This document shows, piece by piece, positions 3,588-47,940 of a stretch of 64,000 nucleotides of DNA. The translations under genes and the position numbers were made by a program. This DNA comes from Patescibacteria group bacterium (GTDB lineage: Bacteria > Patescibacteriota > Minisyncoccia > Phycocordibacterales > PALSA-1337): positions 55,991 to 119,990 of the forward strand of contig JANLHG010000020.1 of assembly GCA_024654575.1 (NCBI GenBank), written 5' to 3'. The notes below the pieces were generated by a model. It made no database searches, was not told where the DNA came from, and saw only the letters and a program-made list of their open reading frames with translations. Position 1 is the stretch's first letter. Each line of letters begins with the position of its first letter.

Positions 3588-3641
3588 TGGAGAACCGAAA
3601 GGAACTCGCTTAATGTGGTAGGTTTTTTGCGTGTAGAAATT

Positions 3642-6077: not shown

Positions 6078-6101
6078 AAAGGACGATGATATTATAGTGA
6101 A

Positions 6102-6949: not shown

Positions 6950-7210
6950 CGAAGAAATGCCGTGATTACGAATAGATTGTTGGGCCAAGAATCCTGACAT
7001 GCTATGGTATCGCATTTGGATCGTCCATTGTTGTGAAAGCTGGGAGAACAGCGAGCTTCACGGATATTGCCCAAGCTACCCAGCCGTTTGAACAGTGTGT
7101 GATCTAAATGAGGAGTTAGTTGGCTAAAGTGCCCGTTGCTTTCACACGGGATTTGTAGTGGGTTGTCTAAAAGTTTCGTCCACCTTAAATGGTGCCTTCA
7201 TTTTTAAGAT
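6950..7210. ncRNA. GC-enriched non-coding segment, candidate structured RNA (unclassified)
   Basis: 850-bp gap without credible ORF; local GC rise; hairpins CCGTGA...TCACGG and CCCGT-N9-ACGGG. Confidence 0.2.
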
Positions 7211-7526
7211 TTTGACTACAGCTAGGGAAGAATTAATGATGCACAACTGAACTGAAAGGAATTTGATATATAAAGACGATTGCTACTTGAAAAAACAGAA
7301 ACAAAGAAGAAATTGGACGAAAAGATTTAGCTAAACGCCCAATTTTATAGCACATATACACTTATATGCTTATTTGTTTCTAGTTTTACATCCCAAGCAA
7401 GACAACCACTTCAGCTTTTTTCTAGGGAAGGGGTAATCCGTCCTGCCTAAATAGTGCTGTATAGAAACTTCAATAAACCTATATGTAAATTAGAAGCAAA
7501 TTATTAATTAAGCTAACTTTACTCAA

Positions 7527-7778
7527 ATGACAATAAAAAACGCAAGAATGAATGTAGGTGTCAGGCAAAAACTGGCATCCTTACCTCGTACTCGATGTGC
7601 TAAATGTAATAGTGTTAAATCTTACACGAACCCTATGGCTAAATGCTGGGAATGTAAGAAAAAGTTTTGTTTTGACGATATTCGAAGCGGACAATTCAAA
7701 CAAGGTATGAAGCGTATAGACCAGTTAAGAAGAATTTGTGATGAGTGCAAAGAGAAATATGGATATGATGGGATATAA
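7527..7778 (+). CDS. small zinc-ribbon protein (three CxxC pairs)
   Basis: CAKCN...CWECKKKFC...CDEC. Confidence 0.4.
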   Translation: MTIKNARMNVGVRQKLASLPRTRCAKCNSVKSYTNPMAKCWECKKKFCFDDIRSGQFKQGMKRIDQLRRICDECKEKYGYDGI

Positions 7779-7790
7779 CTTTTGTAAAAT

Positions 7791-8264
7791 TCAATTTATC
7801 GTTGATGGTCGCAACTGCCAATCTTTATACAGATATCTTTTAAATGATCCTGGAAAATAAGGTTTCAACCATAAAATAGCTTGATTATCAGCATCTCTTT
7901 CCATCTTTGTATTAAGAACGCCATCTTCTGTATCTTCAATTCTTCTAAACCCATGTCTTTTATATACATGTGCAACTTCGTGGGCAATAGCAAACGCTAT
8001 CCTTTTTTCACTTTTGGACCAAAGTGAATTAGATAATATAATTAATCCCCGCTTACCTTTAAGACGAAAATCATTTCTTGCTATATACTCTCCCCTATCT
8101 TTCTTATCTAGAGATATAAAAACACATTTTTCAATCACAAAATCAACTATATTCTCTGGTAGATACGATAAAGCTTTTGCTAAAGGGTTTATATTTTCCT
8201 CAGAAATGAAATCCTTGAAATACACACAGTCCATTTCATTAGTAACTTCTCTTTGTGTATACAT
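7791..8264 (-). CDS. ImmA/IrrE-family-like zinc metallopeptidase
   Basis: AIAHEVAHVYKRH (HExxH) followed by ...ERDADNQA; size 157 aa. Confidence 0.5.
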   Translation of the reverse strand: MYTQREVTNEMDCVYFKDFISEENINPLAKALSYLPENIVDFVIEKCVFISLDKKDRGEYIARNDFRLKGKRGLIILSNSLWSKSEKRIAFAIAHEVAHVYKRHGFRRIEDTEDGVLNTKMERDADNQAILWLKPYFPGSFKRYLYKDWQLRPSTIN

Positions 8265-8271
8265 AAAAGTA

Positions 8272-8469
8272 TTATAGCGTATTTAATTCATTTTTCTCTT
8301 TCATTAACCTAATCTCTCTTTTAAGTGCTATGCCTGTTAATTTGAGAAGTTTTACACCAATATCATTTATTGTCTTATCATCAAGTTTAGCTAAATATTC
8401 TTTTCCAAAATCTTTTCTCAATATTTCCTTTAATTTATTAAATGCTTTTGGGGATAGTTTAGTAGTCAT
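8272..8469 (-). CDS. hypothetical protein
   Basis: ORF 65 aa, overlaps next gene by 4 nt. Confidence 0.3.
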   Translation of the reverse strand: MTTKLSPKAFNKLKEILRKDFGKEYLAKLDDKTINDIGVKLLKLTGIALKREIRLMKEKNELNTL

Positions 8470-8774
8470 TTTTTAACTTTATTATGATATTGTAATACCT
8501 TTTCTGCTGGCGATAGGCCATCAAGAGCTTCGTGAGGAAAGTAATTCCAGGCATCGCTTACTAATTCAAGAATGTCGCTTAATTCTGAAGCATCTCCGCC
8601 TCTATCAAACATTGCCACAGCTTTCATCATGTCGTCATTATCTTCTTCAAAAAAAATGACATCTGCTATATCTTGCAAGCCAAAATCACTTTCAGTTTTC
8701 TTTAGCATTTCCACTAGTTCCTTTTCAATCTCTTTCCTTCTTTTTATAATTTGTTTTTTTGATTCAATTTGCAT
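8466..8774 (-). CDS. hypothetical acidic protein
   Basis: ORF 102 aa. Confidence 0.3.
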   Translation of the reverse strand: MQIESKKQIIKRRKEIEKELVEMLKKTESDFGLQDIADVIFFEEDNDDMMKAVAMFDRGGDASELSDILELVSDAWNYFPHEALDGLSPAEKVLQYHNKVKK

Positions 8775-8838
8775 AAATTAAAATATATTTACTATTTTAT
8801 AATAACATCGACAACTTGTTTTTGAATAAAAAGATTGC

Positions 8839-9315
8839 TCAAAAAAATGTAAGAAAAGATGAAATAATCGCAACACTCACTGGTACCCATATTTGTAGTA
8901 GTTTTTCTCTTTGTTTTTCTGTTTTGTATCTAAAGAAACAAAACCAATGATCAGTAAAGTCATAAAAAGATGATTGTATCGTTATTATTTTATTGTAATG
9001 TTTTTCTAATAACTCTTGTGTGAAAATTAGATGATCTATTTTTTCTTCGTTAAGGTCCTTAGAATTTATTACTAAACAATCACCAACATGATAAATTTTA
9101 TCATTGCCACCAGTTTCAACTGTAACTAAATGTTCCCGTTCCAGAAAATCTAGAGTATAAAATATTTCATCTAATTCGCTAAGAGATTTCAGGTTTTTAC
9201 TACATATTCCATTATCACAAACAATTAAGTTTAATTCTTGACGACTAAGAAGTTCATTGACTCTTTTTTGTCGTCCAGTTTTTAATAAATCAATTAGATT
9301 CTTATTTAATTTCAT
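8839..9315 (-). CDS. hypothetical protein (C-terminal TM)
   Basis: ORF 158 aa immediately downstream of GIY-YIG gene. Confidence 0.35.
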   Translation of the reverse strand: MKLNKNLIDLLKTGRQKRVNELLSRQELNLIVCDNGICSKNLKSLSELDEIFYTLDFLEREHLVTVETGGNDKIYHVGDCLVINSKDLNEEKIDHLIFTQELLEKHYNKIITIQSSFYDFTDHWFCFFRYKTEKQREKLLQIWVPVSVAIISSFLTFF

Positions 9316-9320
9316 AAAAT

Positions 9321-10160
9321 TTACTTCCTAACATTTTCATCAAGTGAATGTCCTTGATTATCTTTCCAAGTATCCCAGCCGTTACAAATACCACCAATAA
9401 TTACATTTCCAGCAGAACTAGGGCTGGTAAATATGTAATCCTTAGTAAAGATATAAGAATTTTCGTCGTGATCTTTGAGAATACCGTCTTCAATCAACCT
9501 GTTTTTTAGTTGTTTACTAGAATTTCTTAAAAAAGACGGCTGTTCTTTTTTTCGAGCAAGCGAATTTTTATAAACTATAAATTCTTCTGTAGGAAGTAAT
9601 GTCCCATGCCCATCTGCACCCTTCAAGGTTACATATTTCATAGAATACATAACGCCACCAATTTGTTTTTTCGAATCTTCAAATACTAGATAGCCAAACA
9701 ATCCAGCCACAAGCTTGATATGTTCGAAACATTGAAAGGCGACTATCTTCTGTGCTTCAGAAAGCCTATTTTCTCTTGGTATTGCAGTATTAGAAATATC
9801 ATATCGATCTGCCTTCTTGGCAGTATCCACAGAAATACTTTCAAGATACTTTATAAGGGCACTGTCCAAACTACCAACGAATATAAAGGCAACATTCCAC
9901 TCATCTTCTTCTCTGTCAGCATCATGCGATATTAGTCTCCCAATAACATTTTCTGATTGGCCAATATATACTGATGGTCGTTCCTTTCCTTCACCGAATA
10001 AAAAATATAATCCAGGTTGTCCTACTTCTTCTCTAGCACGAAGTTCCGCAAGTTTTCCTCTTGGGGCAATAAACACCTTTCCAGTTCTTCCTTCCATTTC
10101 AATTAGCCGAAGTCCCTTTGGGTTATCATTCAGTAGAATTGTTGTTATTACTTGTGCCAT
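9321..10160 (-). CDS. GIY-YIG nuclease family protein with C-terminal uncharacterised domain
   Basis: GLYFLFGEGKERPSVYIGQSENVIGRLISH matches GIY-x(9-11)-YIG plus conserved Arg. Confidence 0.6.
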   Translation of the reverse strand: MAQVITTILLNDNPKGLRLIEMEGRTGKVFIAPRGKLAELRAREEVGQPGLYFLFGEGKERPSVYIGQSENVIGRLISHDADREEDEWNVAFIFVGSLDSALIKYLESISVDTAKKADRYDISNTAIPRENRLSEAQKIVAFQCFEHIKLVAGLFGYLVFEDSKKQIGGVMYSMKYVTLKGADGHGTLLPTEEFIVYKNSLARKKEQPSFLRNSSKQLKNRLIEDGILKDHDENSYIFTKDYIFTSPSSAGNVIIGGICNGWDTWKDNQGHSLDENVRK

Positions 10161-10203
10161 GAAATTATTTAATAGGATTATATCACTTACTTCACTAATT
10201 TGA

Positions 10204-11043
10204 TTATTTTAATTTTTTTGCAATTTCGTATTCTTTTTTAGTAAGCTCTAAATTGCATTTTTTACATTTATATAAATCCGAAAAAGTTCTACTTGAACCA
10301 TATAAACTAGCAGCTTGTGGAAAAATGTCTGAATCTGATCCATCTAAAGAAAAGTCATATGCACCACAACGTGGACATTCTTCGCCAGTAATACTATACC
10401 CATAAGCAGAACTACGTGTATACATTGGAATAGCGAGACCGCCAAAAACCATTGTCTCCAGTGTATTTTTAATTGGTGTTATCTTTGTTTTGACTTCTTC
10501 AATTAAAACTTTCTCTAGTTCTTCTTCAGAGTATTTCTTTTTAGGTTTATTAGCTTTTATTAAATCCTTACCGAATATAGATATTGCTTGAGTAGATATT
10601 TTTTCCCATACTGTTCCTATTTTTTTAACTATATTTTCTCTGTCAGATAAAATACCAGCATCCGACTTATATCCATGAACAAAATGATTTCTAACCTTAT
10701 AAATATCAATTAAGACCTGCATCTCATCATCAGAAAAATCATTTTTGAACATTAATTTATATCTATCGAGGGTTTCTCTTATTCTAATAGTCTCAATATT
10801 CAATTCCTTTCCTTTTATAATTGCCACAAGAGAGTCATTCTCTTTGATTTTAGTATTTTCATAAACCAAAACTGGATTTTCATCATGTAGTTTAATTTTT
10901 AAAATTTTTTCTGTTACAATACAAAAAGAAACCACTATTTCTGGCAAGTCCTCTTGTTTGGTTGGAACATCAAAGAGATACTCGCCGACAACTGAATAGA
11001 GTCTAAGAAGATATTTATAATTTTTATCATTTTTTTCTTTCAT
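10204..11043 (-). CDS. putative HEPN-domain protein with C-terminal zinc ribbon
   Basis: IDIYKVRNHFVHGY (R-x4-H-x-Y HEPN-like motif); C-terminal CPRCG...CKKCN. Confidence 0.45.
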   Translation of the reverse strand: MKEKNDKNYKYLLRLYSVVGEYLFDVPTKQEDLPEIVVSFCIVTEKILKIKLHDENPVLVYENTKIKENDSLVAIIKGKELNIETIRIRETLDRYKLMFKNDFSDDEMQVLIDIYKVRNHFVHGYKSDAGILSDRENIVKKIGTVWEKISTQAISIFGKDLIKANKPKKKYSEEELEKVLIEEVKTKITPIKNTLETMVFGGLAIPMYTRSSAYGYSITGEECPRCGAYDFSLDGSDSDIFPQAASLYGSSRTFSDLYKCKKCNLELTKKEYEIAKKLK

Positions 11044-11048
11044 AATTT

Positions 11049-11981
11049 TTATGAAGGCTTTTTTTCTGATGTATCGATTTTCATATTCTCTATTTTCTCA
11101 GGACCAACATCTTGAATCTTTGCTTCCTCCTTTTTGGTTGGGAGAATCTTATCTATAATTTCAAATATCAATTCTGTAGGTACAACCCTTACTAATCCTG
11201 TTTGTTCAGTAAATACTATCCGTGGTTCTCCTGTCTGTTGGCTAATAGCAATATCAGAGTAGGTTTCTCCAGAACTAATAACTCCAATTAATCCTGCCGA
11301 AGAATTACTTTGAGTGCCTGTAATCGCCACTACCTCAGGCTTGTTGATAACAGGACCTCCACTATTTCCAGGATAAGCAGAGGCATCTATATAAAAGAAA
11401 CAATCTTCTAATACTTCTTCATCAACTCTAGCTATTATCCCTTGTCTCACAATTACGAAATTTCTTGTCTTGCCACTTATGCGCATCGGAAATCCAAGCA
11501 CAAACAATCCATCTCCAGTTGAAATATTTTCTATTGAGAAATCTTTAGCATAAAATATACTGTCCTCTCTAAAAAAGTAAAAATTTATTTTTGCATCATT
11601 AATTGCTACAGCATTAATAGGAAGAACAGCTAAATCAACTTTTTCACTCTCATGCATAAGCCAAAGAGGACTTTTGTCCTCTTTTAATAAAGGTACTTTA
11701 AAGTAATGACTTTTACTATCTAGGGTATTAAACCTAAAAAAGACTTCCTTTAATAGCTCTTTTGTTTTTGGATTTTGGAAAACATGTCTATTTGTTACAA
11801 CAAATAATTTAAAAAGGGGTTGTTTTTGATCATTTTCTCCCACTTTCTTACCAACTAAAAATCCTGTTGCAATTGAAATTTTACTTAATACTCCAGTAGT
11901 GTCTTTATTTTCTACCTCAATTGATACAACTGAATTTAAATATTGTGGTGGTATTAGAGACATAATTTCTATTCCTCCCAA
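11049..11981 (-). CDS. trypsin-like (S1 family) serine protease
   Basis: catalytic triad context TNRHV (His), DLAVL (Asp), GNSGGPV (Ser). Confidence 0.7.
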   Translation of the reverse strand: MGGIEIMSLIPPQYLNSVVSIEVENKDTTGVLSKISIATGFLVGKKVGENDQKQPLFKLFVVTNRHVFQNPKTKELLKEVFFRFNTLDSKSHYFKVPLLKEDKSPLWLMHESEKVDLAVLPINAVAINDAKINFYFFREDSIFYAKDFSIENISTGDGLFVLGFPMRISGKTRNFVIVRQGIIARVDEEVLEDCFFYIDASAYPGNSGGPVINKPEVVAITGTQSNSSAGLIGVISSGETYSDIAISQQTGEPRIVFTEQTGLVRVVPTELIFEIIDKILPTKKEEAKIQDVGPEKIENMKIDTSEKKPS

Positions 11982-14482
11982 AGTTTAGCTAGGGTGTCTT
12001 TAGTCTTTTGTTCATAAATCTCGATCAGTTTTTTATTACCTTCGACGAGAGTACGCTCCGATTCAATACGTTCCACGATTTGTTTTTGAATTCCGAGAGG
12101 TGGAAGAGGAATTTCAAAGCTAGAAACTTGGGCCAAAGATAAATTACTTTGAGCAACGCCCACTTTCAAACCAAGAATTTGGTTCTGAATCATATCTGAT
12201 CTTAAAACTTGTTCGAGGTATTTTGAATTTAGTTCTTTTTTTGGTGAAATTATTGCAAGTGCTTGGTTAGTATTGGCAGGTAATACAGAAGAATCTACCA
12301 AAGCAACTCGTCCAAGAGCGCCGGCGATTGAAAACAAGACATCATTTTCTTCCAACTGAGATCGTTTTAGAGATTCGTTACATTTCTGATTTATATGGGC
12401 AAATTTCTTCTTGATAAAATATCCATCATTATCAATTGATTCTATTTTAATAAAGTTAATTCCACTTTCTTGAAACTCAAATCCATTTGTGGTGGGAGTT
12501 GTCCCTTTTGTTACTCTGTTTGATACTTCTTCTAATTTCACCTTCTTCCACGAAGGATCAATTACTATGATTGGCTTCCAACTTGAAATGATTTGCTTAG
12601 CGCCGGCGATGATGTTTTGGTAGCCGTCTAGTTCAGCGACAATTTGCTGTTGGATTTCTAATGGCGGAATAGGAATTTTTTGATTTGCAATAGTTACATG
12701 CCCTAAATGCTTTTGAATCCCGCCCTTCATTTGCTGTTGTAATAAACCTTGGAATAAATCACTCTCCAGAATATTAAAGAGATATTTTTGATCCACCTTG
12801 TTTTTATCAAAAGAAATTCTAAATAAATTATTGCTTAATATCCCTGGAACAGCCATAAAAGCCCTGCCTGGTGTGCCGGTATTTGCCATAACAAGGTCTT
12901 CAACAGTGACTTCCTTGGTTGCATATATATCTTTAACATAAATTGATTTATCCTCGCCTTTAAAATCTTGTATATATAAATACCTTTTGTAACCACTTCT
13001 AAATTCATTTAACTGCTTTTCTTTAGGTATTTGTACACCCTGAGTAAATTCACAAACATCCCCCAACCTAACTATTGGCCATTTGGCATTGGTGTAATCT
13101 GTTGCTATGCGATAGCGATCTCCAGAAAGATTGTAGTCGCCAGATTCAGTAATCTTTTCTTTTTTCACTAACCAAGCAAAAAAACTACCGTCAGATATAA
13201 GTTGATTTTTTGTTCCCGTTTCAATAGCAATTTTCTGTGCTTTAAGAACATCAAGAGCTGCACCATCATCAGTTAAATCATTTATATGACTATCAGGAAG
13301 TGGTCGTCGACGAGCACCTAAATCAAAACCATCACTTTCAACTTTAATAAATAATATCTCATCTGTTTTCTTTGCTATCTCATTATCAAAAAATAGAATA
13401 CTGGTCTTTACTCCTGCATAAGGATTAAATACACCTTGTGGTAAAGAGACAACAGCATAGAGTCCATCTTCTACAAGATTCTTACGAAGTTGCTTATGTG
13501 CTGTACCGGACTGAAAAATAATACCTTCGGGAACAATAATACCTGCTCGGCCTTGAGGCCTTAGATGGTTCATTATGTAATCCACAAATAACACTTCGGA
13601 CCGGCTAGACTGAATACTAAACTTACTATGGGTGCTAACCCCGCCTTTTGGCGACATAAATGGGGGGTTGGCGAGAATTACAGAGAATTTGTCGCCCCAA
13701 CGTTCATCCATAGAGAGCGTGTCATATTGAAATATTTTTGGATTCTTGAATTGGTGTAGATACATATTGACTTGAGCTATACGGACCATTCCAGGGTCTA
13801 TGTCGTAGCCTTCAAAATTACCCATCAAGTTTTTACGCTGATCAGGGGTCAGAGGTTTTTCCTTTTTCTTTGGATCATTTTTACCGTCGTGTTGCTCGAG
13901 TATGTGTTTGTAGGCACTCACCAAGAATCCTCCAGTACCGCAGGCAGGGTCCAATACTTTGTCTTCCTGTGTCGGATCTACTACATCCACCATAAAATCA
14001 ATAATATGGCGTGGGGTGCGGAATTGTCCCGCATCGCCTTGAGATGACATGATAGAGAGCAGATATTCGTAGGCATTACCCAATTCTTCGGGGTGTGAAT
14101 AATCAAAGTAATTAATTTCCTTCAAAAATAAGCCTAGCACTTCAGGGCTTCGATACGGCAAAAATGCGGACTTAAAAATCTCACGAAAAAGTTGTGGAAG
14201 TTGTTTTGATTCAGAAAACTTTATAAGGGCTTCACTATAGATATTCATTCGCTCTTGATTGCCTATACGAGTATCAGCAAGACGAGTCCACGCATACTGC
14301 TCCAAGTCGCCTACAAAGAACGAGGGATCTCCACCCTGCTTAATCGCAGACTGGTCCATATCATCCATAAACTTGTAGATAAGAGCATTGGTGATCTGAT
14401 CTATTTGAGAAGTTGGATTTGGGACCACGCCGACAAGGACTTGGCGAGCGGCGTCTATATGTCTTTTTGTTTCGGTGTTCAT
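11969..14482 (-). CDS. hsdM/hsdS: Type I restriction-modification fused HsdM (N6-adenine MTase) - HsdS (specificity, two TRDs) polypeptide
   Basis: DPACGTGGFL (motif I), NPPF (motif IV); C-terminal half has two target-recognition domains with conserved spacers IPIPPLEIQQQIV and IPLPPLGIQKQIV; single 837-aa ORF. Confidence 0.85.
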   Translation of the reverse strand: MNTETKRHIDAARQVLVGVVPNPTSQIDQITNALIYKFMDDMDQSAIKQGGDPSFFVGDLEQYAWTRLADTRIGNQERMNIYSEALIKFSESKQLPQLFREIFKSAFLPYRSPEVLGLFLKEINYFDYSHPEELGNAYEYLLSIMSSQGDAGQFRTPRHIIDFMVDVVDPTQEDKVLDPACGTGGFLVSAYKHILEQHDGKNDPKKKEKPLTPDQRKNLMGNFEGYDIDPGMVRIAQVNMYLHQFKNPKIFQYDTLSMDERWGDKFSVILANPPFMSPKGGVSTHSKFSIQSSRSEVLFVDYIMNHLRPQGRAGIIVPEGIIFQSGTAHKQLRKNLVEDGLYAVVSLPQGVFNPYAGVKTSILFFDNEIAKKTDEILFIKVESDGFDLGARRRPLPDSHINDLTDDGAALDVLKAQKIAIETGTKNQLISDGSFFAWLVKKEKITESGDYNLSGDRYRIATDYTNAKWPIVRLGDVCEFTQGVQIPKEKQLNEFRSGYKRYLYIQDFKGEDKSIYVKDIYATKEVTVEDLVMANTGTPGRAFMAVPGILSNNLFRISFDKNKVDQKYLFNILESDLFQGLLQQQMKGGIQKHLGHVTIANQKIPIPPLEIQQQIVAELDGYQNIIAGAKQIISSWKPIIVIDPSWKKVKLEEVSNRVTKGTTPTTNGFEFQESGINFIKIESIDNDGYFIKKKFAHINQKCNESLKRSQLEENDVLFSIAGALGRVALVDSSVLPANTNQALAIISPKKELNSKYLEQVLRSDMIQNQILGLKVGVAQSNLSLAQVSSFEIPLPPLGIQKQIVERIESERTLVEGNKKLIEIYEQKTKDTLAKLWEE

Positions 14483-14939: not shown

Positions 14940-17507
14940 TTAATTCATAAAAGTGTTAAGAGACACATAATCTTTTACATATGTAGGGACTGTAGTCTTG
15001 AAGCCATTGAGTCTCTGATATTCTTCGAAATCAAATGAGGCGCAAAAATTAAGCTGTGCTAATTGCTTAGTCTCAATAATCTCTCGAACTTGCGGATCTA
15101 CTATATATGCTTTGAAAAAGCTTTTAACTGGCGCATAGTGCTCTTGATCTACTGTATTTACTTCCGTGAATTTACTCCATTCTGATTCAAGTAACTCATC
15201 TTTGGATTCAAAATTACTTTTCTGTCCAAAAGCGACCTGTAGAAATTCACGAATAGTAATGCGACGATCAACATTAAAAGTTTTTCTAATTCCTTGTAGA
15301 TTAAGAAAGTGATTTGGTTTGTCGAAAATGTTGGTTTTAGTATAGTCTTCAGCTGCTGCTACGTCTCCATTATTCCAAAGGTTCTTTAACGTTTCGTTGG
15401 CAAGCACATCTTCTTCTACAGCACGCTTGAAGCCTTCGCGGTCAATACGCATACCTTCGGAGCCAATATGTTTTTCTGAAATTGTAGCAAGCTCATCCTG
15501 TGTAGCTAAATCTATTGGGCCTTTGAAAATATTAGTGCCATCTTCGTCAACGAATATATCTGAACCACCGGAATCTTTACCAGTTGTTGTATCAGTTTCT
15601 TTTATCTTCTTAATCTTCGGAAGTTTAATCTTTTCGTCATATTTAAATTCATTTTCAAAATATTCACAAGTAGCAAAAAAATCAAAGAATTTGAAATGTT
15701 CTTTATGTTTTGTGATAGTTTCTTTTGTTGCATAATCAATATATTCAAATTGATATTTTCTTGTGCCTCTTCCTTTAATTTGCACAAACTCCGCAGGGCT
15801 AAACACTGGACGCATCAGTGCTAAGTTTAAAATATCTTGACAGTCATAACCTGTAGTCATCATTCCAACAGTAACCGCTATGCGACTTTTACTAGAATCA
15901 TAACCCTCAGGACTTTTAACTTTGCCATTAAGCATATTATTAGAGAAGTTAATGGTCATTTGTTGAGCATTTTGGACCAAAGAAGTCACTTGCACGGCAA
16001 AATTTGATTCACTGTATTGTTCTGGCCATTTTTCAAAAGCCAGTTTGTTTAATATATTAGTTATTCTTGAAGCATGCTTTTGAGACACACAGAAAACAAT
16101 TGATTTTCCAAACAAGTCCAAATTATATTTTTTAGCAACAGGATCAAAGAGTCCGTTATCTATAAACGCTTTACACATTGCGATATTAGTTTCTTCGTTA
16201 AAGAATTTTCTTTCGTAATGACGTTCATTAAACACTTCGTTGATTGTCTCTCCTTGCTCTGTGGTGGAATGGACCGCATAACCATCTTCTGAGAGAAGTT
16301 CTGTGGTAATATCTGTGCGAGCGTCTACTACTATAGGATTTATAAGAAAACCATCTTTAACACCTGAAAGTAAATCATAGCTGAATGTTGGTTTACCTGA
16401 CTCGCATCCGAATGTCTTATATGTATCTAATAACTGTCTTCGTTCAAACTCTCTCTGTGTATCCGCACCTTCGCCATCAAATCCTTTGAGATAGTTTTTT
16501 GGCGTTGCGGTAAGTCCTAATTTATAGCCCACAAAGTATTCAAATACCGCACGACTGTTGCCACCAATGGACCTATGACTTTCATCACTGATAGTCAATT
16601 CAAAATCTGTAGGCGAAAATTCTTTTTTATACCTATCACCCGCAAGAAATGTCTGAATAGTAGAAACCACAATTTGAGCATTACGCCATGAATCACGGCT
16701 ATCTTTGTAGATAACACTAGTGTAATCCTTTCCTAAATATTGTTTGAAAGCTTTTTGTGCTTGTTCCTCAAGCTCTATGCGATCGACTAGAAATAGGATA
16801 CGACGAGCATTACCTGATTTAAGAAATAATTTTATGACTGCGGCAGAAATAAGCGTTTTACCAGTCCCAGTAGCCATTTCAAATAAGAATCTATTTTTAT
16901 TTTCAAATGCAGAAGATTGTAAACTTTTAATTGCCCCAACTTGATATGGACGCAATTGTTTAAGGTTATTATTATGTAGAAATTCTCGTTTCTTTGATTC
17001 GTCTTTAAAATCAGGATCATTAGCATAGCTAGGCATTTGCGATTCAATAATATAGTTTTCGTCTACTTTTGTACTAGCTAGTTCTGAAGGATTAGGAATA
17101 TATTTTTCATATTGTGTAATAGATTCTTGTGTTGGAAAACGGGAAATAGTATCAGGATTGCCATGTTTTGTATCCCATAAATAATGAATGTTGCCATTGG
17201 ATAATATAACGAATCGAGCATTTACAGTACGAGCATAATTTTTAGCTTGATCTTTAGCCGAAAGTGGATCGATCGATTCTTTCTTTGCCTCTACTACAAC
17301 AAGAGCCCTGCCGTCTTTATCTAAAAGAAGAAAATCAATAAATCCGTGCGTCTCTTGTTCAAAGTCGTCTCCAAGTTCTGAATACTTTACTCCTGGCTCA
17401 AGTTCAATATTAGCTTTTCCATTTTTATCATCTTCAAAACGCCATCCTGATTCTTCAAGCAGTTTGTTTATCTTAATACGAGCCGATGCTTCTTTTAATT
17501 TCATCAT
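14940..17507 (-). CDS. hsdR: Type I restriction enzyme R subunit (PD-(D/E)xK nuclease + SF2 helicase)
   Basis: N-terminal FIDFLLLD...VVVEAK nuclease motif; MATGTGKT Walker A; DESH; TATP. Confidence 0.85.
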   Translation of the reverse strand: MMKLKEASARIKINKLLEESGWRFEDDKNGKANIELEPGVKYSELGDDFEQETHGFIDFLLLDKDGRALVVVEAKKESIDPLSAKDQAKNYARTVNARFVILSNGNIHYLWDTKHGNPDTISRFPTQESITQYEKYIPNPSELASTKVDENYIIESQMPSYANDPDFKDESKKREFLHNNNLKQLRPYQVGAIKSLQSSAFENKNRFLFEMATGTGKTLISAAVIKLFLKSGNARRILFLVDRIELEEQAQKAFKQYLGKDYTSVIYKDSRDSWRNAQIVVSTIQTFLAGDRYKKEFSPTDFELTISDESHRSIGGNSRAVFEYFVGYKLGLTATPKNYLKGFDGEGADTQREFERRQLLDTYKTFGCESGKPTFSYDLLSGVKDGFLINPIVVDARTDITTELLSEDGYAVHSTTEQGETINEVFNERHYERKFFNEETNIAMCKAFIDNGLFDPVAKKYNLDLFGKSIVFCVSQKHASRITNILNKLAFEKWPEQYSESNFAVQVTSLVQNAQQMTINFSNNMLNGKVKSPEGYDSSKSRIAVTVGMMTTGYDCQDILNLALMRPVFSPAEFVQIKGRGTRKYQFEYIDYATKETITKHKEHFKFFDFFATCEYFENEFKYDEKIKLPKIKKIKETDTTTGKDSGGSDIFVDEDGTNIFKGPIDLATQDELATISEKHIGSEGMRIDREGFKRAVEEDVLANETLKNLWNNGDVAAAEDYTKTNIFDKPNHFLNLQGIRKTFNVDRRITIREFLQVAFGQKSNFESKDELLESEWSKFTEVNTVDQEHYAPVKSFFKAYIVDPQVREIIETKQLAQLNFCASFDFEEYQRLNGFKTTVPTYVKDYVSLNTFMN

Positions 17508-17556
17508 ATAATTCTTAGAGTATAGCGTAAAAATACACTACTTGACAAGTAGATAG

Positions 17557-17578
17557 TAACACCTGTCTTGTGGTGTTA
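17557..17578. promoter_or_regulatory. palindrome TAACACC-N8-GGTGTTA ~50 bp upstream of hsdR start (candidate operator)
   Basis: perfect 7-bp inverted repeat. Confidence 0.25.
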
Positions 17579-17787
17579 TAATTTTAAATATATAAATGAA
17601 TCAAAGTAATAGCCATTACTCAGTCTTTCTTTAAACGCTCTCTAGCTACATCTTTAACCAAATCAATAAGAGTATATTCTTCACCAAACCCTTTCTCTTT
17701 TCTTTTCTTTTCCAATCCAGTTTAGTGAAGGCATATTTTAATCTTACCAGTTTTTATATCACATTACTACCACCTATTGACACTATT

Positions 17788-17873
17788 AAAAATTTGGTGT
17801 GCAACTAAAAATTTATCCCCTTTTTTTGATTTTTTTCTTTGAAGCAACCACCCACATTGCTATAATTTAACAT
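17788..17873 (+). promoter_or_regulatory. Copy 1 of ~85-bp conserved promoter element (GTGCAAC...TTTATCCAC...TTGAAG-17-TATAAT)
   Basis: near-identical copies at 37660-37738 and 40338-40420; contains TTGAAG -35 and TATAAT -10 with 17-bp spacer and upstream A/T tract. Confidence 0.5.
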
Positions 17874-18222
17874 GTTGAGTACTGAAATATAATTTTATCT
17901 TTGTTTGTCTAATTTCTTCTCGTTAGTTACTGTAAATAATCGGTAATTAACGGGAGGGCGTTAGAAGGTAATACAGTCAATCCCTCAAATATACTGTAGT
18001 CAAGCATAGACTTAAAAAGCACTGCAAATGAAAACAAAATTTGCAAGATGTTTTCCACTTCCAGACGGCAACATGTGTTGCAAACATTGGAATGGAAACT
18101 ATATCGTCTTTCCCATGAAAGGAGATCATCGTTCAAGAAACGAAAAATCCCCCAATGAGGAGGACGATTCGGAAGAATAAACTACCAAATTTATTTTTCA
18201 ACCCACATTTCAAATTGAAGCG

Positions 18223-18476
18223 TGGGCAGAGGAAGTAATATAAAGCATGATTGGCTCTATAACTTAATGGATAAAGCAACAGATTAGTAATCTGTATCCA
18301 TCACAGGATGATTTATTCTTAAGTCATGATCTCGGTTCGAATCCGAGTAGAGCCGTTTTACTTCCTCTGTCCACTCTTCAAATTTTATAAAGAACGAAAA
18401 ATTACCCCATTTGGGGTGTGAACTAATCTTTTTATTAGAGTAGAATCATGTTTCATTTTTATCACCATATTAAATA
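18223..18476 (+). repeat. Repeated tRNA cassette copy 1: 16-bp inverted repeats (TGGGCAGAGGAAGTAA / TTACTTCCTCTGTCCA) flanking the tRNA-like gene plus ~100-bp conserved tail with CCCCATTTGGGG hairpin
   Basis: second copy at 38076-38313 with the same IRs and >90% identical tail but a different embedded tRNA-like sequence. Confidence 0.55.
18253..18355 (+). tRNA. atypical tRNA-like gene (103 nt): canonical acceptor, D arm (G18G19), anticodon arm (loop UUAGUAA) and T arm (GGTTCGAATCC), but a 35-nt insertion at the variable-arm position
   Basis: manual fold: GGCTCTA/TAGAGCC acceptor, ACAGA-TTAGTAA-TCTGT anticodon arm, CTCGG-TTCGAAT-CCGAG T arm; identity unresolved. Confidence 0.45.
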
Positions 18477-34833: not shown

Positions 34834-35610
34834 TTATTTATTGTAATTTTGTATTCGTTTGTTTGCTAAATCCACATATTTTTTTTCTTTTTCGATTCCA
34901 ATCCAGTTTCTCTCAAGTGCCTTTGCGACAACAGCTGTCGTGCCACTTCCTAAAAATGGGTCAAGAATTAAATCACCTTTTTTACTAGAAGTTAAAATTA
35001 CTTGTTGAATAAGTTTTAATGGTTTTTGTGTGGGATGTGATTTTATTCCATTTTCATCTCGTAATCGTTCCTTACCTTTACATAAACCAAACACCCAGTC
35101 AGTATCTTTCATTTGTTTTCCACCGTTTATTTTTTTTAAGAAATCATTATTAAAAGTGTAATTTTTACAATTTTTATTTTTTACAGCCCAAATTAAAATT
35201 TCGTGATTATTTGTAAATCTTCTACCATTAAAATTTGGCATAGCATCAGTTTTGACCCAAATCACATCATTTAAAAACCATAACCCTAAGTCTTGCATAA
35301 TTTTACCAACTCGAAAAACATTATGGTACATACCCATTACCCAAATCGTTCCAGTTGGTTTCAATATTCTTTGACATTCTTTAATCCAATTACCTGTAAA
35401 AGTATCGTAATCTTCATAGCTTTCAAATTTATCCCATTCATCATTTACAGGAATTACTTCCGTTCCGTTTTCTCGTATAAGTTTTCTATTTTTCGGCAAT
35501 TGTAAATTATATGGTGGATCAGCAAAAATTAAATCAAAACTATTATCAGGAAATGTTTTTAATACCTCTAAACAATCACCATAAATTATGGTATTAACTA
35601 TTTTTTTCAT
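34834..35610 (-). CDS. beta-class DNA methyltransferase (N6-adenine or N4-cytosine)
   Basis: FADPPYN (motif IV) before SHPTQKP and LDPFLGSGTTAVVA (motif I): circularly permuted beta order. Confidence 0.8.
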   Translation of the reverse strand: MKKIVNTIIYGDCLEVLKTFPDNSFDLIFADPPYNLQLPKNRKLIRENGTEVIPVNDEWDKFESYEDYDTFTGNWIKECQRILKPTGTIWVMGMYHNVFRVGKIMQDLGLWFLNDVIWVKTDAMPNFNGRRFTNNHEILIWAVKNKNCKNYTFNNDFLKKINGGKQMKDTDWVFGLCKGKERLRDENGIKSHPTQKPLKLIQQVILTSSKKGDLILDPFLGSGTTAVVAKALERNWIGIEKEKKYVDLANKRIQNYNK

Positions 35611-35630
35611 AAAAATACAATAAAACCAAA

Positions 35631-36425
35631 CTATTCATCATATCTAATTTTTTTATATAGATTATCAAATATCTCAATTATTTCTTTATCTTCACTAACT
35701 TCTTTTAAGTAACCATCTAAATCTTCATATCTTATTGAAAAAAATTTATTAAATAAATCTGATCCACGACTTATATAATTCTTTTCTGGAACATAAATAT
35801 TACCTTTCATTCTTTTATAATTAAAGTAATATAGAATTGGTTTTAGATCATTAATATCATTTATTTTTAACTCTTTTACAAGACCTGCATAAGTCTTTAT
35901 GAATTTTCTATTAATATCTACAAACTTCCCTGTATCATGGTCATCATTATATTTAATTTCTAAATAATAATATTTTTTATCTTTTTTATCTTTAAATAAA
36001 CAATCTATATCATGTTTGTTTTCGATAAGATGTACTTTCTGTTTTTGTTCTCGGATAATATCATTTAAAAGTTTTTCAAATTTTTCTGTCAATTTATCAT
36101 CAGTATTATTTTGGCTATTTGATATAAACTTATCTATTATACTATCAGTATTTTCTGTTAAAGATAATTTAATATTCTTTTTACCAGAAAGATGTGGAAT
36201 TATTTCTAGATTTTTTTCTGACTCAACGATTTTATGTATTAATACTTCTATAAAATTACCAAATTGAATATTTAAAGATTGTAATAATCCACCAAAAACA
36301 CGATATTTAACGGGAACAAAATGTAACTTAACTTCGTGTTTTTTTGTTATTAAACCTATTTTATTTTTATTTGACGTATTATTTAGAAGTTCAATAACAG
36401 CGTCCTTTATTAATTTTTTAATCAT
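35631..36425 (-). CDS. putative Type II restriction endonuclease (no recognisable motif; positional inference)
   Basis: 264-aa ORF sandwiched between, and overlapping by 4 nt with, two MTase genes. Confidence 0.4.
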   Translation of the reverse strand: MIKKLIKDAVIELLNNTSNKNKIGLITKKHEVKLHFVPVKYRVFGGLLQSLNIQFGNFIEVLIHKIVESEKNLEIIPHLSGKKNIKLSLTENTDSIIDKFISNSQNNTDDKLTEKFEKLLNDIIREQKQKVHLIENKHDIDCLFKDKKDKKYYYLEIKYNDDHDTGKFVDINRKFIKTYAGLVKELKINDINDLKPILYYFNYKRMKGNIYVPEKNYISRGSDLFNKFFSIRYEDLDGYLKEVSEDKEIIEIFDNLYKKIRYDE

Positions 36426-37498
36426 ATTTTTAAATAAGTGTTTATATAATCCTGTCTTAAATCGTTGATCAGTACAAGTTGTCCTCTACGTTTAATATAC
36501 CAAAATGTCCAACCGTTATTTGTTTCTTTATTTAATAATCTAGCACTAACTTTATGAATTGATCCAATTTCCTCATTTGATGATAAGGTCGAATCTGCTA
36601 ATACTACCGCCTTTTTATCTCCATTCTTTAAATAAAGATTTTCACCAACATTAATTAAACCAGACTCAACTAAATTACCAAATGGAACTTTGGGATTTCT
36701 TGACTCAATCGGATATAGTAGTAGTTTTTCATCAATTAATTTAACTTTTTTTATTCTATCATTTGCTACTTTTATATAAAAATTCTCTTTTTCTATCCCT
36801 ATAAAATTTCTTCTCATTTTTTTTGCTACAGCTCCAGTTGTGCCACTTCCCATAAAAGGATCTAAAATTATATCTCCAATATTTGAAGTTGATAATATTA
36901 TTCTATAAAGTAAAGCTTCCGGTTTTTGAGTTGAATGAGCTTTATTTCCATTTACTTTTATTCTTTCTCCTCCACTACATATAGGTATGTACCAATCACT
37001 TCTCATTTGTTTATCATCGTTGAATGCTTTCATAGATCTATAGTGAAAAGTTGATTTAGACTTATCACTTTTTGATGCCAGAATCAACGTCTCTTGTGCA
37101 TTGTTAAATCTCGTACCTTTAAAATTAGGCATTGGATTAGTTTTAATCCAAATAATGTCATTCAATATCCAAAAACCAATGTCTTGCATAATTTTACCAA
37201 CTCGAAAAATATTATGATAACTACCAATAACCCAAATTGAACCATCTTTTTTTAAAACTCTTTTACATTCTAGTAACCAACTATAAGTAAACTTATCGTA
37301 GTCATCGAAAGAAGGAAATTTATCCCACTTATCATTTACTGCACTTACTTTAGTTTGATTGGGTCTATAAAGATCACCTTTTAGTTGTAAATTATATGGT
37401 GGATCAGCAAAAATAAGATCTACAGAATTTTCTGGTAATTTTTTAAGAGTTTCTATACAATCACCTTTTATTATTGTATTTAAATATTTCTTATCCAT
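36422..37498 (-). CDS. beta-class DNA methyltransferase with C-terminal extension
   Basis: FADPPYN, STQKP, LDPFMGSGTTGAVA; ~120-aa C-terminal extra domain. Confidence 0.8.
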   Translation of the reverse strand: MDKKYLNTIIKGDCIETLKKLPENSVDLIFADPPYNLQLKGDLYRPNQTKVSAVNDKWDKFPSFDDYDKFTYSWLLECKRVLKKDGSIWVIGSYHNIFRVGKIMQDIGFWILNDIIWIKTNPMPNFKGTRFNNAQETLILASKSDKSKSTFHYRSMKAFNDDKQMRSDWYIPICSGGERIKVNGNKAHSTQKPEALLYRIILSTSNIGDIILDPFMGSGTTGAVAKKMRRNFIGIEKENFYIKVANDRIKKVKLIDEKLLLYPIESRNPKVPFGNLVESGLINVGENLYLKNGDKKAVVLADSTLSSNEEIGSIHKVSARLLNKETNNGWTFWYIKRRGQLVLINDLRQDYINTYLKI

Positions 37499-38075: not shown

Positions 38076-38313
38076 TGGGCAGAGGAAGTAACACAAGTGA
38101 TTAGGATCTGTGATGAAATTGGTAGACATAATGATTTATCATATCATCGCCGTACAAGCATGCGAGTTCGAATCTCGCCAGATCCACAATTACTTCCTCT
38201 ATCCACTCTTCAAATTTTATAAAGAACGAAAAATTACACCATTTGGGGTGTGAACTAATCTTTTTATTAGAATAGAATCACGTTTCATTTTTATCACTAT
38301 TTTAAACAAACCG
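38076..38313 (+). repeat. Repeated tRNA cassette copy 2 (IRs at 38076-38091 and 38190-38205 plus conserved tail)
   Basis: see 18223-18476. Confidence 0.55.
38104..38186 (+). tRNA. tRNA-like gene (83 nt) with type II (Leu-like) architecture: 3-bp D stem, D-loop AAATTGGTAGA, 14-nt variable region; anticodon loop UUAUCAU
   Basis: GGATCTG/CAGATCC acceptor, ATGAT-TTATCAT-ATCAT anticodon arm, GCGAG-TTCGAAT-CTCGC T arm; anticodon identity ambiguous. Confidence 0.5.
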
Positions 38314-43150: not shown

Positions 43151-45029
<1,879 letters not shown>

Positions 45030-45116
45030 TTAGCAGAATATTATAAAAATTGAAATAAAAATACTCCGAGAGGTTTGACCCTCCCGGAGTAGTATTTGAA
45101 ACGAGGAACTTTGAGA

Positions 45117-46226
45117 TCATCGAACCGCCAGTGTCTCGCCGGCATACTCGAGATTCTTCGGCTTGATGACGACTTTCTTGTCGCCGTCTTCGATGTGTCC
45201 CGCCAAGAATGCACGCAGACCGAGTTTCTTTGCAACATCAATCACTTGGGTCGCTTGCGCTTCGGTCACGTAGAGCGCAAACCCAGCGCCCATGTTGAGA
45301 TTGCCGTAGGCTTCCTCGTCATCGACAGGTCCATGCTTTTGCAGGAAATCAAAGATCGGAAGCTGTGTCGGAAGTTTTTCTATCACGTAGGTGAATGGCT
45401 GTGTCGCCCGCATGAGCTTGCGCCATCCGTGACCCGTGATATTGACCGTGTAGTGAATGTTTCCACCATAATCAAGATTGAGACAATCCTCTACCAAGCC
45501 CACGTAGATATGAGTCGGATCGAGGAGCGTTTCGCCGTAGGTCCGGTCGTCGGAGAGTTTCGTGAGATACCCTTCCGGCAGTTTGTCAGCAATCTTCCGC
45601 GCCAGAGTGAGTCCGTTGGCATGAATGCCGGAACTCTCGATGAGAACGATTGCATCGCCGTGCTGAATCGGACCAGCAATGAGACGCTCCTTCGGTTTGA
45701 CGATACCAATCGCCGAACCGGAGAGCACGACTGCTTCCGGAACCACGACACCCTTGAGAGTCGGCGTTTCGCCTCCACCCCAGGTGCAACGTGCCAGGTT
45801 ACAGGCATTCTTCCAGCCAGTGACAAGATCGCCTGTGCGTTTATCATCATTGAACCAGTCGGAAGTGCCGACCGCCAGATGCATCGCCACAGATAGTGGC
45901 AGTGCGCCAAGCGTGACCAGATCGTTGACAATCATGGCAACTGTGCATTGCGCGATCTGATCGTAATACGATTTGCCGGTGAGGGCATACATCGCATCAG
46001 CAACCAGATTCTTGGTGCCAAGTCCTTCCTCGACGTGGGCGAAGTAGCTTTTGGCCGCCTCGATCAGATAGGCGCTTTCGCCTCTCGAAGGTTCGAATTC
46101 CCGGAACTCCCCACCATTGAGGCGATTGATGTTTCCAGAAGTTTCTCGCGCAGCAAGCTGTGCCATCCGTTTGAATGGGTCCATGGCATCGTAATTGACA
46201 CCGGTACCCGCATAGGTCATGTTCAT
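45117..46226 (-). CDS. PurM-superfamily (AIR synthase-related) protein in a high-GC island
   Basis: GVNYDAMD..., VNDLV..., WGGGET..., SSGIHANG..., ITGHGW align with PurM blocks but divergent (EEGLGTK instead of GTDGVGTK); local GC ~55%. Confidence 0.55.
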   Translation of the reverse strand: MNMTYAGTGVNYDAMDPFKRMAQLAARETSGNINRLNGGEFREFEPSRGESAYLIEAAKSYFAHVEEGLGTKNLVADAMYALTGKSYYDQIAQCTVAMIVNDLVTLGALPLSVAMHLAVGTSDWFNDDKRTGDLVTGWKNACNLARCTWGGGETPTLKGVVVPEAVVLSGSAIGIVKPKERLIAGPIQHGDAIVLIESSGIHANGLTLARKIADKLPEGYLTKLSDDRTYGETLLDPTHIYVGLVEDCLNLDYGGNIHYTVNITGHGWRKLMRATQPFTYVIEKLPTQLPIFDFLQKHGPVDDEEAYGNLNMGAGFALYVTEAQATQVIDVAKKLGLRAFLAGHIEDGDKKVVIKPKNLEYAGETLAVR

Positions 46227-46317
46227 TCTTAATCTCCTATATTTTGTTGTTTTTGTTCTTTGTTTTTTTGATTCTACTAACAGATTAATTCAAATAAATA
46301 TTAAAGTCAATAAAAAA

Positions 46318-46761
46318 TTAATTCTGAACATCTACAATTTCAACATCAAAAGTCAAAGTAGCGTTTGCTGGAATAATTGGTGGAAATCCTTGAGAACCAT
46401 AACCTTTTTCTGGAGGAATAACTAAATGTTTTGTCTCTCCCACTTTCATTCCAATCAATCCTTCATCCCAACCTTGAATAACTTGTCCAATACCAAGAGT
46501 AAATTTAATCGGACCATGATTAGCTGAAGTATCAAAAACTGTTCCATCTTCCAATTTACCAACATAATTAACAGTTACTACTGAACCCTGTTTTGCTAAG
46601 TTAGTATTAGCATTATCGTTATTAACTACCTCTTTTACTTCGTTATTATTGTTTTGTTCATTTATATTCATAGAAGGTTTTTTTGATGATAAAAAATAAT
46701 AAAAAAATCCAAAAATTACTACAATTGAAACTACTACCGCTACCCATTGATTTGTTTTCAT
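46318..46761 (-). CDS. FKBP-type peptidyl-prolyl cis-trans isomerase, membrane anchored
   Basis: VTVNYVGKLEDGTVFDTS...IQGWDEGLIGMKVGE...TLTFDVEIVDV. Confidence 0.75.
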   Translation of the reverse strand: MKTNQWVAVVVSIVVIFGFFYYFLSSKKPSMNINEQNNNNEVKEVVNNDNANTNLAKQGSVVTVNYVGKLEDGTVFDTSANHGPIKFTLGIGQVIQGWDEGLIGMKVGETKHLVIPPEKGYGSQGFPPIIPANATLTFDVEIVDVQN

Positions 46762-47553: not shown

Positions 47554-47940
47554 ATGCAAAAAGATTTTAATGGGTGGAATAAAAAAAAGAAAAAAATGCA
47601 TAATCGGGAAGATACTCCATTTTTTCATACGAGAGAAATTTGGTGGTGTTCTCTAGGAGTTAATATCGGTTTTGAACAAGATGGTACTGGTGAAAACTTT
47701 TACAGACCCGTACTTATTTTAAAAGGTATGAGCAAAGAAACATGTTTTGTAATACCGCTTACCACTTCAGATAAAAGGCATAAGTTTCGTCCATCAATTG
47801 GTATTGTAGATGGAAAAGAAGCTAAAGCATTACTTTCTCAAATGCGTCTAATTGATGCCAAAAGATTAATACGAAAAATGGAATATCTAGATGAAAAGAT
47901 TTTTGAACGCATAAGAAAAACCATCAAAGAAATGCTTTGA
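47554..47940 (+). CDS. MazF/PemK-like endoribonuclease toxin (putative), no obvious antitoxin
   Basis: REIWWCSLGVNIGFEQDG...RPVLILK...CFVIPLTTS fits PemK fold pattern. Confidence 0.45.
   Translation: MQKDFNGWNKKKKKMHNREDTPFFHTREIWWCSLGVNIGFEQDGTGENFYRPVLILKGMSKETCFVIPLTTSDKRHKFRPSIGIVDGKEAKALLSQMRLIDAKRLIRKMEYLDEKIFERIRKTIKEML

Follow-up and report, generated by a model that had tools for sequence, protein, structure and literature searches.

The 64-kb stretch of DNA analyzed here (hereafter, the window) belongs to a Patescibacteria group bacterium (GenBank assembly GCA_024654575.1, contig JANLHG010000020.1) and carries on its minus strand a GC-rich purM gene, set between the genes for an FKBP-type peptidyl-prolyl isomerase and for queuine tRNA-ribosyltransferase (tgt). 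The product is predicted to be an aminoimidazole ribonucleotide (AIR) synthetase of a type found across the Candidate Phyla Radiation (CPR), and the gene probably reached this site by horizontal transfer. GC content was scanned over the whole window in 300-nt, 50-nt, and 1-kb steps. At the 300-nt scale, it stands at 0.52–0.56 across approximately 45100–46150, with both flanks at 0.28–0.43, and has fallen to 0.34 by 46150–46449; the 50-nt scan places the edges of the island at approximately 45050–45100 and 46200–46250. All other 1-kb bins lie at or below 0.42, and the window mean is 0.338. Positions 45100–46230 have a GC content of 54% and a third-codon-position GC content (GC3) of 0.60, while the purM open reading frame (ORF) itself has a GC content of 0.541, with 0.614/0.405/0.603 at the first, second, and third codon positions. 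GC3 in the seven genes neighboring purM is 0.135–0.26, and among 79 non-overlapping window ORFs (purM and 78 others) purM is an extreme GC3 outlier, with the other 78 all far off. An initial annotation of this DNA, made from the sequence alone, had described a sharp jump in GC at a compositionally foreign gene. The jump was borne out (54% in the island against 33.8% in the window, with sharp edges), and purM stood apart when composition was compared across the window ORFs (GC3 0.60 versus 0.13–0.26 in its neighbors).

The island consists of one 369-amino-acid (aa) ORF and its terminator hairpin, and the genes around it include tgt, FKBP, DsbA, VKOR, and a pseudouridine synthase. Overlapping ORFs of 66–266 aa crowd the island on both strands, as the initial annotation had remarked, and the single credible gene that it named is indeed the only frame with homologues and with Pfam domains (AIRS and AIRS_C). 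The start that it gave, 45041, is that of a spurious 66-aa ORF; the real unit spans approximately 45052–46317. Antisense ORFs of 93–266 aa appeared to be “conserved” in 42–46 loci and were dismissed as by-products of the conserved, GC-rich sense gene. Expression-linked codon bias was also dropped as a cause of the island, because the window genes for DnaK (GC3 0.18) and ribosomal proteins (approximately 0.10–0.21) are not GC-rich.

The purM coding sequence (CDS; 45117..46226, minus strand), assigned as a CPR-type AIR synthetase (phosphoribosylformylglycinamidine cyclo-ligase) from Pfam, TIGR00878, Protein Data Bank (PDB), and structural-model evidence, encodes 369 aa; starting instead from the second in-frame ATG (46220) would yield 367 aa, the typical length of its homologues. 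A Shine–Dalgarno sequence, AGGAG, can be read directly at 46234..46238 (minus strand), 7 nt before the first ATG, and AGGAG or GGAG is present at the same position before purM in related loci. Right after the FKBP stop codon lies a weak putative promoter, TTGACT-17 nt-TAATCT (46282..46310, minus strand), which aligns with TTGNC...TAATAT upstream of purM in four other loci (L060, L058, L006, and L005; L-numbers denote individual loci of the survey described below). It was not called in a consensus promoter scan, its −10 hexamer matching at only 3/6 positions. At the other end, a terminator scan identified a 12-bp stem (45062–45091) followed by a T-tract within a 3′ untranslated region (UTR) at 45052..45116 (minus strand), and this 3′ UTR, terminator included, forms the right-hand boundary of the transferred segment. 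The flanking genes named in the initial annotation are both supported by Pfam: tgt (43797..45020, minus strand; Pfam TGT, E 9e-139) is the host gene downstream of the insertion, and FKBP (46318..46761, minus strand; Pfam FKBP_C) is the host gene upstream of it. Compared across loci, the promoter motif and N-terminus of the window tgt are like those of related genomes.

Some details of these intervals are recorded for their own sake. Approximately 40 nt before the purM ATG, five loci (L060, L058, L006, L064, and L005) share a semi-conserved motif, ...CTGAACATCTCACAACAAAAGAAAGGAG, which in L064 sits inside the palindrome GTTCAG..CTGAAC and which in the window is degenerate (46239–46270, AAAGAACAAAAACAACAAAATATAGGAG). 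This motif could be a candidate operator for purine-responsive regulation. The possibility that the island or its margins hold a structured RNA or riboswitch was dropped, as no Rfam match was better than E 0.19 and the purM 5′ UTR is only about 55 nt long. The tgt gene contains an exact tandem repeat of 18 nt, GGAGTTTCAATCACCCCG, present twice at a spacing of 21 nt (44929–44967), which encodes a duplicated peptide at the Tgt N-terminus; the corresponding sequence in relatives is similar but non-identical. The GC content of tgt is 0.38–0.43, which is raised for the host genome.

A homologue search with the window PurM returned at least 8,000 matches. The best 120 had 77–92% identity, and the sources named among them are Patescibacteria lineages, for example, Kaiser-, Taylor-, and Paceibacteria. 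For the locus survey, one genome per species was taken; it included 51 Patescibacteria loci with products 51–88% identical to the window protein, from Paceibacteria, Microgenomatia, Saccharimonadia, ABY1-type, and other lineages, compared with 31–34% identity for canonical purM products of other phyla. An exhaustive representative search yielded 390 clusters (at 50% identity) with E < 1e-30, and the subfamily is essentially restricted to Patescibacteria metagenome-assembled genomes (MAGs). CPR-type purM was also seen in three MAGs labelled Pseudomonadota, Gammaproteobacteria, and Limnocylindrales (L016, L039, and L041), which reflects either mis-binning or mislabelling, or else occasional transfer beyond Patescibacteria. 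L039 has the most extreme compositional offset (GC3 0.84 versus 0.39).

There is good support for a recent horizontal origin of the window purM copy. The nearest available relative with conserved synteny, L065, carries the block RRM-CAP-LOG-PsiU-FKBP-tgt (PsiU, pseudouridine synthase) without purM, and its FKBP stop codon overlaps the tgt start. By alignment with the window, the L065 genes are 79–82% (tgt), 94–95% (RRM), 77% (PsiU), approximately 73% (LOG), and 57–69% (CAP and FKBP) identical. Besides purM, the two blocks show a second small indel difference: a MazF/PemK-type toxin gene lies between the pseudouridine synthase and LOG genes of the window (47554–47940, plus strand) and is absent from L065, which has a rhodanese gene between CAP and LOG instead. 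Across the 84 tgt loci compared from relatives (L048 and L065–L147), LOG-(PsiU)-(FKBP)-tgt is the recurrent order, and purM lies beside tgt only in L048.

The end of the unit appears to be portable as well. A segment of approximately 70 nt that begins at the stop codon and runs to the T-tract (45052–45116) is near-identical in L064 and similar in L061 and L011, with compensatory changes in the stem. These three copies occupy unrelated contexts, and their likeness to the window ends right past the T-tract. A second hairpin class is found in L060, L006, L058, L004, and L003, and a third in L013 (Blackburnbacteria) and L015 (Nomurabacteria). The closest purM copies, at 84–87% nucleotide and 91–93% aa identity, adjoin trmD, alaS, purL, and other genes, and never tgt. 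The relatedness of purM is also decoupled from that of housekeeping genes. For example, the window and L061 share 90% identity in PurM and 36% in AlaRS, and the window and L021 share 80% in PurM and 43–60% in S9, L17, RpoA, S4, and S11/S13. For the window tgt, the best non-self match is at 77%; for PurM, dozens of clusters lie above 85%. Between the window and L048, identity at four-fold degenerate sites is 0.52–0.56 in purM (chance, 0.25) and 0.24–0.29, that is, saturated, in DEAD, CAP, and LOG. Provided that MAG binning and naming are right, nucleotide identity between a Blackburnbacteria (Microgenomatia) purM and a Vogelbacteria copy is 88% (70% at four-fold sites), but only 58% between that purM and a Shapirobacteria copy.

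The composition of the gene likewise fits a newcomer. The direction of third-position substitutions was reconstructed by parsimony on a neighbor-joining tree, and the branch leading to the window copy carries 36 GC-to-AT and 15 AT-to-GC changes. A GC-to-AT excess is also present on the tips of other low-GC hosts, while those of high-GC hosts are balanced or reversed, and the equilibrium GC3 implied for the tips correlates with the GC of their hosts (rho 0.48, p 2e-4). The window purM is thus drifting towards AT (amelioration), with a composition that is still donor-like at all three codon positions. Its values of 0.61/0.41/0.60 lie near those that the amelioration regressions of Lawrence & Ochman (1997) are reported to predict for a genome of approximately 55% GC. 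Like other ameliorating acquired genes, it is atypical at all three positions, absent in a relative, and biased from GC to AT. It differs in being a single housekeeping-type biosynthetic gene with its own terminator, and its allele lineage occurs in many Patescibacteria classes. The recent horizontal acquisition suggested in the initial annotation has therefore gained support from the empty site in L065, the portable UTR and terminator, the GC-to-AT excess, and the decoupling from housekeeping genes.

Not all of the evidence points this way, and several observations weigh against a simple transfer. The GC content of purM exceeds that of its flanks in 51/51 CPR loci, by 2 to 23 points, and among the sampled hosts, none is as GC-rich as the purM gene, so that a plain donor-to-recipient transfer is not the full explanation. 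There is no tRNA within 6 kb of the island, no integrase, and no repeats bracketing it. Parsimony counts of substitution direction are biased under skewed composition, a caution that applies to the amelioration estimate above. Finally, L048 has FKBP-purM-tgt, the same junction as the window, and the site may therefore be long occupied. These observations bear on the main rival explanation, which is that purM is a long-term vertical resident at FKBP-tgt, its GC kept high by synonymous or mRNA selection, or by GC-biased gene conversion with recombination. Besides the 51/51 loci, the lack of a GC-matched host, and the shared gene order in L048, a fairly distant relative, such residence would agree with the behavior of canonical purM, which differs from its flanks by only −3 to +1 points in five non-CPR loci, and with the raised GC of purL and purC.

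We nevertheless regard vertical residence as unlikely. In deep-branching members (L041, L045, L057, L044, and others), GC3 is 0.26–0.51 and equals the host value, so that the subfamily has no general need of high GC. In the crown clade, to which the window purM belongs, GC3 is mostly 0.5–0.75, while the median GC3 of hosts is 0.18–0.72; one GC-rich purM allele lineage is widespread. The GC-to-AT excess in low-GC hosts indicates a gene off equilibrium rather than one held at it, and the highly expressed genes of the window have low GC3. The non-coding 3′ UTR and terminator recur with purM copies from unrelated contexts, and purM is missing from this site in L065 as in 82 further tgt loci. GC-biased gene conversion or synonymous selection may still contribute to the high GC of purM alongside transfer.

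The sharing of a junction with L048 can be accommodated in more than one way. L048 is probably the second-closest genome, judging from FKBP, LOG, and DEAD identity, and the class of its terminator hairpin differs from that of the window. One possibility is that a common ancestor already had purM at this junction, that L065 then lost it, and that a GC-rich xenologue later took the place of the window allele in situ. Another is that the spacer between a terminator and a promoter was hit twice. A promoter motif and an N-terminus of tgt common to the window and L048 were considered as proof of one insertion and dropped, because both also occur in relatives without purM, which makes the sharing not decisive. 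In L048, purM (10001–11126, break near 10567) and tgt (11241–12469, break near 11873–11888) are each read in two frames, the result of either MAG assembly errors or real pseudogenization.

Horizontal arrival of a purM unit that encodes a normal, if divergent, Patescibacteria-type AIR synthetase is, in our judgment, the probable explanation of this locus. The unit, of approximately 1.27 kb, would comprise a probable promoter, a ribosome-binding site (RBS), the 369-aa CDS, and an intrinsic terminator. Its donor would have been a GC-richer member of the Patescibacteria and its recipient site the FKBP-tgt spacer of a 34% GC genome, with arrival either as a new insertion or as an in-situ replacement of an older copy. 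As there is no mobile-element machinery, DNA uptake with subsequent recombination between Patescibacteria would be the most plausible route. Once in place, purM would be driven by its own AT-rich promoter and RBS, and its own hairpin would end the transcript upstream of the tgt promoter. With its atypical GC3 (0.60 versus 0.13–0.26) and the empty site in L065, the locus resembles a classical genomic island. However, no integrase or transposase lies among the neighbors, no tRNA occurs within 6 kb, and no target-site duplications, terminal repeats, or other bracketing repeats were found at the island, so it is not a classical integrative one.

The assignment of the protein to PurM rests on profiles and on fold. 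Pfam detected both PF00586 (AIRS, 39.7 bits) and PF02769 (AIRS_C, 44.2 bits) above their cut-offs, and NCBIfam TIGR00878 (purM) matched at full length (model positions 2–331 of 332; 174.4 bits, E 3.5e-51). The thiL and hypE models reached 30.7 bits (cut-off 184) and 15.8 bits (cut-off 252), respectively. In a PDB search, 20/20 matches were PurM or PurM-like chains, with the top match at 1e-29. An alignment of 99 family members was used to build both a profile and an AlphaFold model. Against the PDB, the profile matched genuine PurM from archaea, bacteria, and human at 1e-59 to 1e-43, compared with 1e-37 for 3MDO, 1e-30 for 3KIZ, and 1e-7 for SelD, and it matched no HypE or ThiL chain below 1e-5. 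The model of the window PurM has a predicted local distance difference test score (pLDDT) of 95.9, and its best Foldseek matches were the AIR synthetases of Pyrococcus abyssi and P. horikoshii (TMq 0.85, TMt 0.93, root-mean-square deviation 2.1 Å), followed by human, Vibrio, and E. coli PurM. Foldseek E values were 1e-32 for PurM and 1e-15 to 1e-16 for SelD, HypE, and ThiL, the latter at 13–18% identity. By these sequence and model comparisons, the window protein groups with genuine PurM within the superfamily, far from HypE, ThiL, and SelD. The non-PurM function entertained in the initial annotation, for which HypE, SelD, and ThiL had been named, is therefore unlikely.

Judging from its sequence, the gene is intact and under strong purifying selection. 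The window PurM departs from the family at none of 115 columns on which at least 93% of members agree, and its tip branch carries 49 synonymous versus 9 nonsynonymous changes. It is therefore presumably used together with other pur genes, which would lie outside the 64-kb window. The enzyme would act as a homodimeric ATP-dependent cyclo-ligase that converts formylglycinamidine ribonucleotide (FGAM) to AIR in step 5 of de novo purine synthesis, activating the formyl oxygen of FGAM and closing the imidazole ring; for the retained canonical residues the known mechanism is assumed, and part of the metal/ATP site is substituted. AIR synthetase activity is thus a prediction from sequence and structural model.

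The active site is divergent. Like canonical PurM (EC 6.3.3.1; 1CLI from E. coli, 9K00–9K06 from Pyrococcus abyssi, 2V9Y from human, and 5AVM from T. thermophilus), it has the AIRS plus AIRS_C fold (TM 0.72–0.85 by query length), and its full-length identity is approximately 30%. The DX4GAXP, GGET, HxNG, and NMGxG signatures are all kept, both here and throughout the CPR subfamily (NDLVTLGALP, D102...P110; GGGET, 150–154; IHANG, 201–205; and NMGAG, 311–315). The altered glycine-rich loop reported in the initial annotation, EEGLGTK, is present at residues 66–72, and EGLGTK is retained subfamily-wide in place of the canonical DGVGTK. Further differences from canonical PurM are LDY to AMH, HSNG to HANG, and HITGGG to NITGHGW, together with two small insertions, YALTGKSYY and SDWFNDDKR. 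In canonical enzymes, eleven residues that contact ATP, Mg, or FGAM (D48, G49, V50, D77, D90, Y91, G123, E124, S174, N175, and H231 in C. neoformans numbering) are described as “fully conserved” (PMC8449271). Mapped by motif alignment, not by coordinate superposition, five are kept (G49=G68, D77=D102, G123=G152, E124=E153, and N175=N204) and six are replaced (D48E67, V50L69, D90M115, Y91H116, S174A203, and H231N262). The change from HITGGG to NITGHGW removes the Mg-binding His and brings in an invariant His266 four residues downstream. E67 and NITGHGW (N262 and H266) mark the whole subfamily, while its deep-branching members still have the canonical Tyr and Ser. The sequence pattern points to H116 and H266, both invariant, as possible stand-ins for the lost contacts.

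That six of eleven contacts are replaced counts against a normal AIR synthetase, as does a TIGR00878 score (174.4 bits) below the curated equivalog cut-off of 236.35, which also bears out the “divergent PurM-superfamily protein” of the initial annotation, both AIRS domains being found while the cut-off is missed. So does the window itself, in which tblastn with CPR purL, purN, and purC queries found none of these genes (other pur genes were not searched). An improbable reading of these facts is that the protein is a PurM paralogue with a different ATP-dependent activation or cyclization, which would fit an organism living by purine salvage. The replacement of D48, D90, Y91, S174, and H231 (PMC8449271) and the new invariant H116 and H266 would be in keeping with such a change, as would a report that 93% of genomes, and hence most Patescibacteria, have no de novo nucleotide synthesis, the genes showing “scattered phylogenetic distributions” (bioRxiv 10.64898/2026.06.21.733656). 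However, a complete de novo purine module is present in 32% of 399 CPR MAGs (PMC11608272). The premise of the initial annotation that such organisms lack purine synthesis therefore holds for most of them and not for all.

Against a paralogue stands the company that the subfamily keeps. There is no conserved synteny around purM across loci except for purL, and the tgt and FKBP neighbors are lineage-specific. A single-chain purL of approximately 1,290 aa lies within about 100–900 bp of purM in approximately 12/51 loci; L058 and L059 have the order purN-purL<->purM, and L060 has purL<->purM with purC 6 kb off. PurM is fused to PurC (P0150), to PurD (P0181, from Gottesmanbacteria, and P0264), and to a PurL fragment (P0240). 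As in canonical PurM, then, the operon and fusion partners are purL, purN, purC, and purD, and this proximity and these fusions link the subfamily with the de novo purine pathway. The gene is also not the lone one described in the initial annotation, but a member of a CPR-wide subfamily with thousands of homologues and with pur neighbors or fusions elsewhere. The best fold matches are AIR synthetases, and the profile favors genuine PurM over the Bacteroidota PurM-like proteins 3KIZ (Cytophaga hutchinsonii) and 3MDO (Parabacteroides distasonis), “putative” cyclo-ligases of approximately 390 aa with the same superfamily fold. The window protein alone, searched with phmmer, matched these two at 1e-13 and 1e-11, compared with 1e-29 for genuine PurM. 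As they are the more distant, the window protein lies outside that paralogue group. The family already carries the public labels purM and “AIR synthase-related”, and a literature search found no paper on this PurM subfamily or its GC pattern; some novelty lies only in the GC-cassette pattern and the active-site substitutions.

Delivery of purM as an auxiliary metabolic gene by a phage or other mobile element is very improbable. Phage purM genes are widespread, in cyanophages and other phages (PMC7678222), and they resemble the window gene in being stand-alone copies moved apart from the rest of the pathway. A serine recombinase lies in the window at 1–1130, and another adjoins purL in L060. 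However, phage copies are of the canonical type, approximately 30% identical to the window PurM and no nearer to it than cellular canonical PurM, and no CPR-type purM (0) was found in 2.9 million viral contigs. The window recombinase is 44 kb from purM, and the island itself has no integrase, tRNA, or flanking repeats. A phage origin was dropped on the present data.

Least credible of all is an assembly chimera or contamination, in which a GC-rich organism would have contributed reads of some conserved gene to a low-GC contig. The high conservation of purM among co-occurring CPR speaks for it, as assemblers can cross genomes at conserved genes. However, the genes on both sides belong to a single syntenic block that runs unbroken in L065. 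The shift in GC follows the limits of the CDS and terminator, with AT-rich, host-like spacers on either side that hold the RBS and the tgt promoter, and few k-mers would be common to an AT-rich native allele and a GC-rich one. The same pattern also recurs in >50 independent assemblies from different studies, which, together with the syntenic flanks, excludes in practice the misassembly that the initial annotation had raised.

Elsewhere in the window, a LOOT RNA (Rfam RF03000; 57 bits, above the gathering score) lies at 3481–3607 (plus strand) among short phage- or plasmid-like ORFs near the serine recombinase. Rfam identified a 103-nt tRNA at 18253–18355 (plus strand) that ARAGORN did not call and that may hold an intron or insertion; ARAGORN called an 84-nt “tRNA-Asp (atc)” at 38104–38187 (plus strand) that has no Rfam call at the gathering score. 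Two DNA methyltransferase-like ORFs with the motif FADPPYNLQL (34834–37498, minus strand) surround an AT-rich ORF (35631–36425; GC 0.21, GC3 0.11). From the sequence motif, this segment is probably a restriction–modification cassette of foreign, AT-rich origin.

The pattern seen in purM may extend to other genes of the pathway. In L060, purL (GC3 0.65–0.68), purM (0.63), and purC (0.70) form separate GC islands among neighbors at 0.25–0.46, with the purL and purC islands at 5971–9803 and 17172–17990. CPR purL is raised in GC in most loci and is 74–85% identical among several lineages; purL ORFs were also examined in L004, L005, L009, L016, L017, and L021. The whole purine gene set may share the history of purM. 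We tentatively propose that purM, purL, and purC form a pool of GC-rich, near-identical single-gene cassettes, each with UTRs of its own, that were recently exchanged across class-level lineages, for example, between Paceibacteria and Microgenomatia. The Mg/ATP site of the PurM that travels in this way would have been rewired through loss of the HITGGG His and the LDY Asp-Tyr, with His116 and His266 possibly serving as substitutes. Within this proposal, only the exchange of purM is directly supported; for purL and purC it draws on GC and sequence conservation in a handful of loci.

Purine-synthesis genes seem to move freely among Patescibacteria. For the window, the odd composition of purM would mark a recent horizontal arrival, and not an exotic function or an assembly error. 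More broadly, the crown purM clade holds approximately 55% GC in hosts of 32% to 56% GC, purM is up to 88% identical in DNA between MAGs of different classes, and each copy brings its own terminator to unrelated sites. This suggests that ongoing gene-by-gene exchange, and not loss alone, lies behind the patchy distribution of purine synthesis. The replaced residues of the metal/ATP site pose a concrete structure–function question for PurM enzymology, and the GC signature would offer a simple compositional marker for such transfers. If the pool of cassettes is real, purine autonomy in these bacteria would be gained, replaced, and lost one gene at a time.

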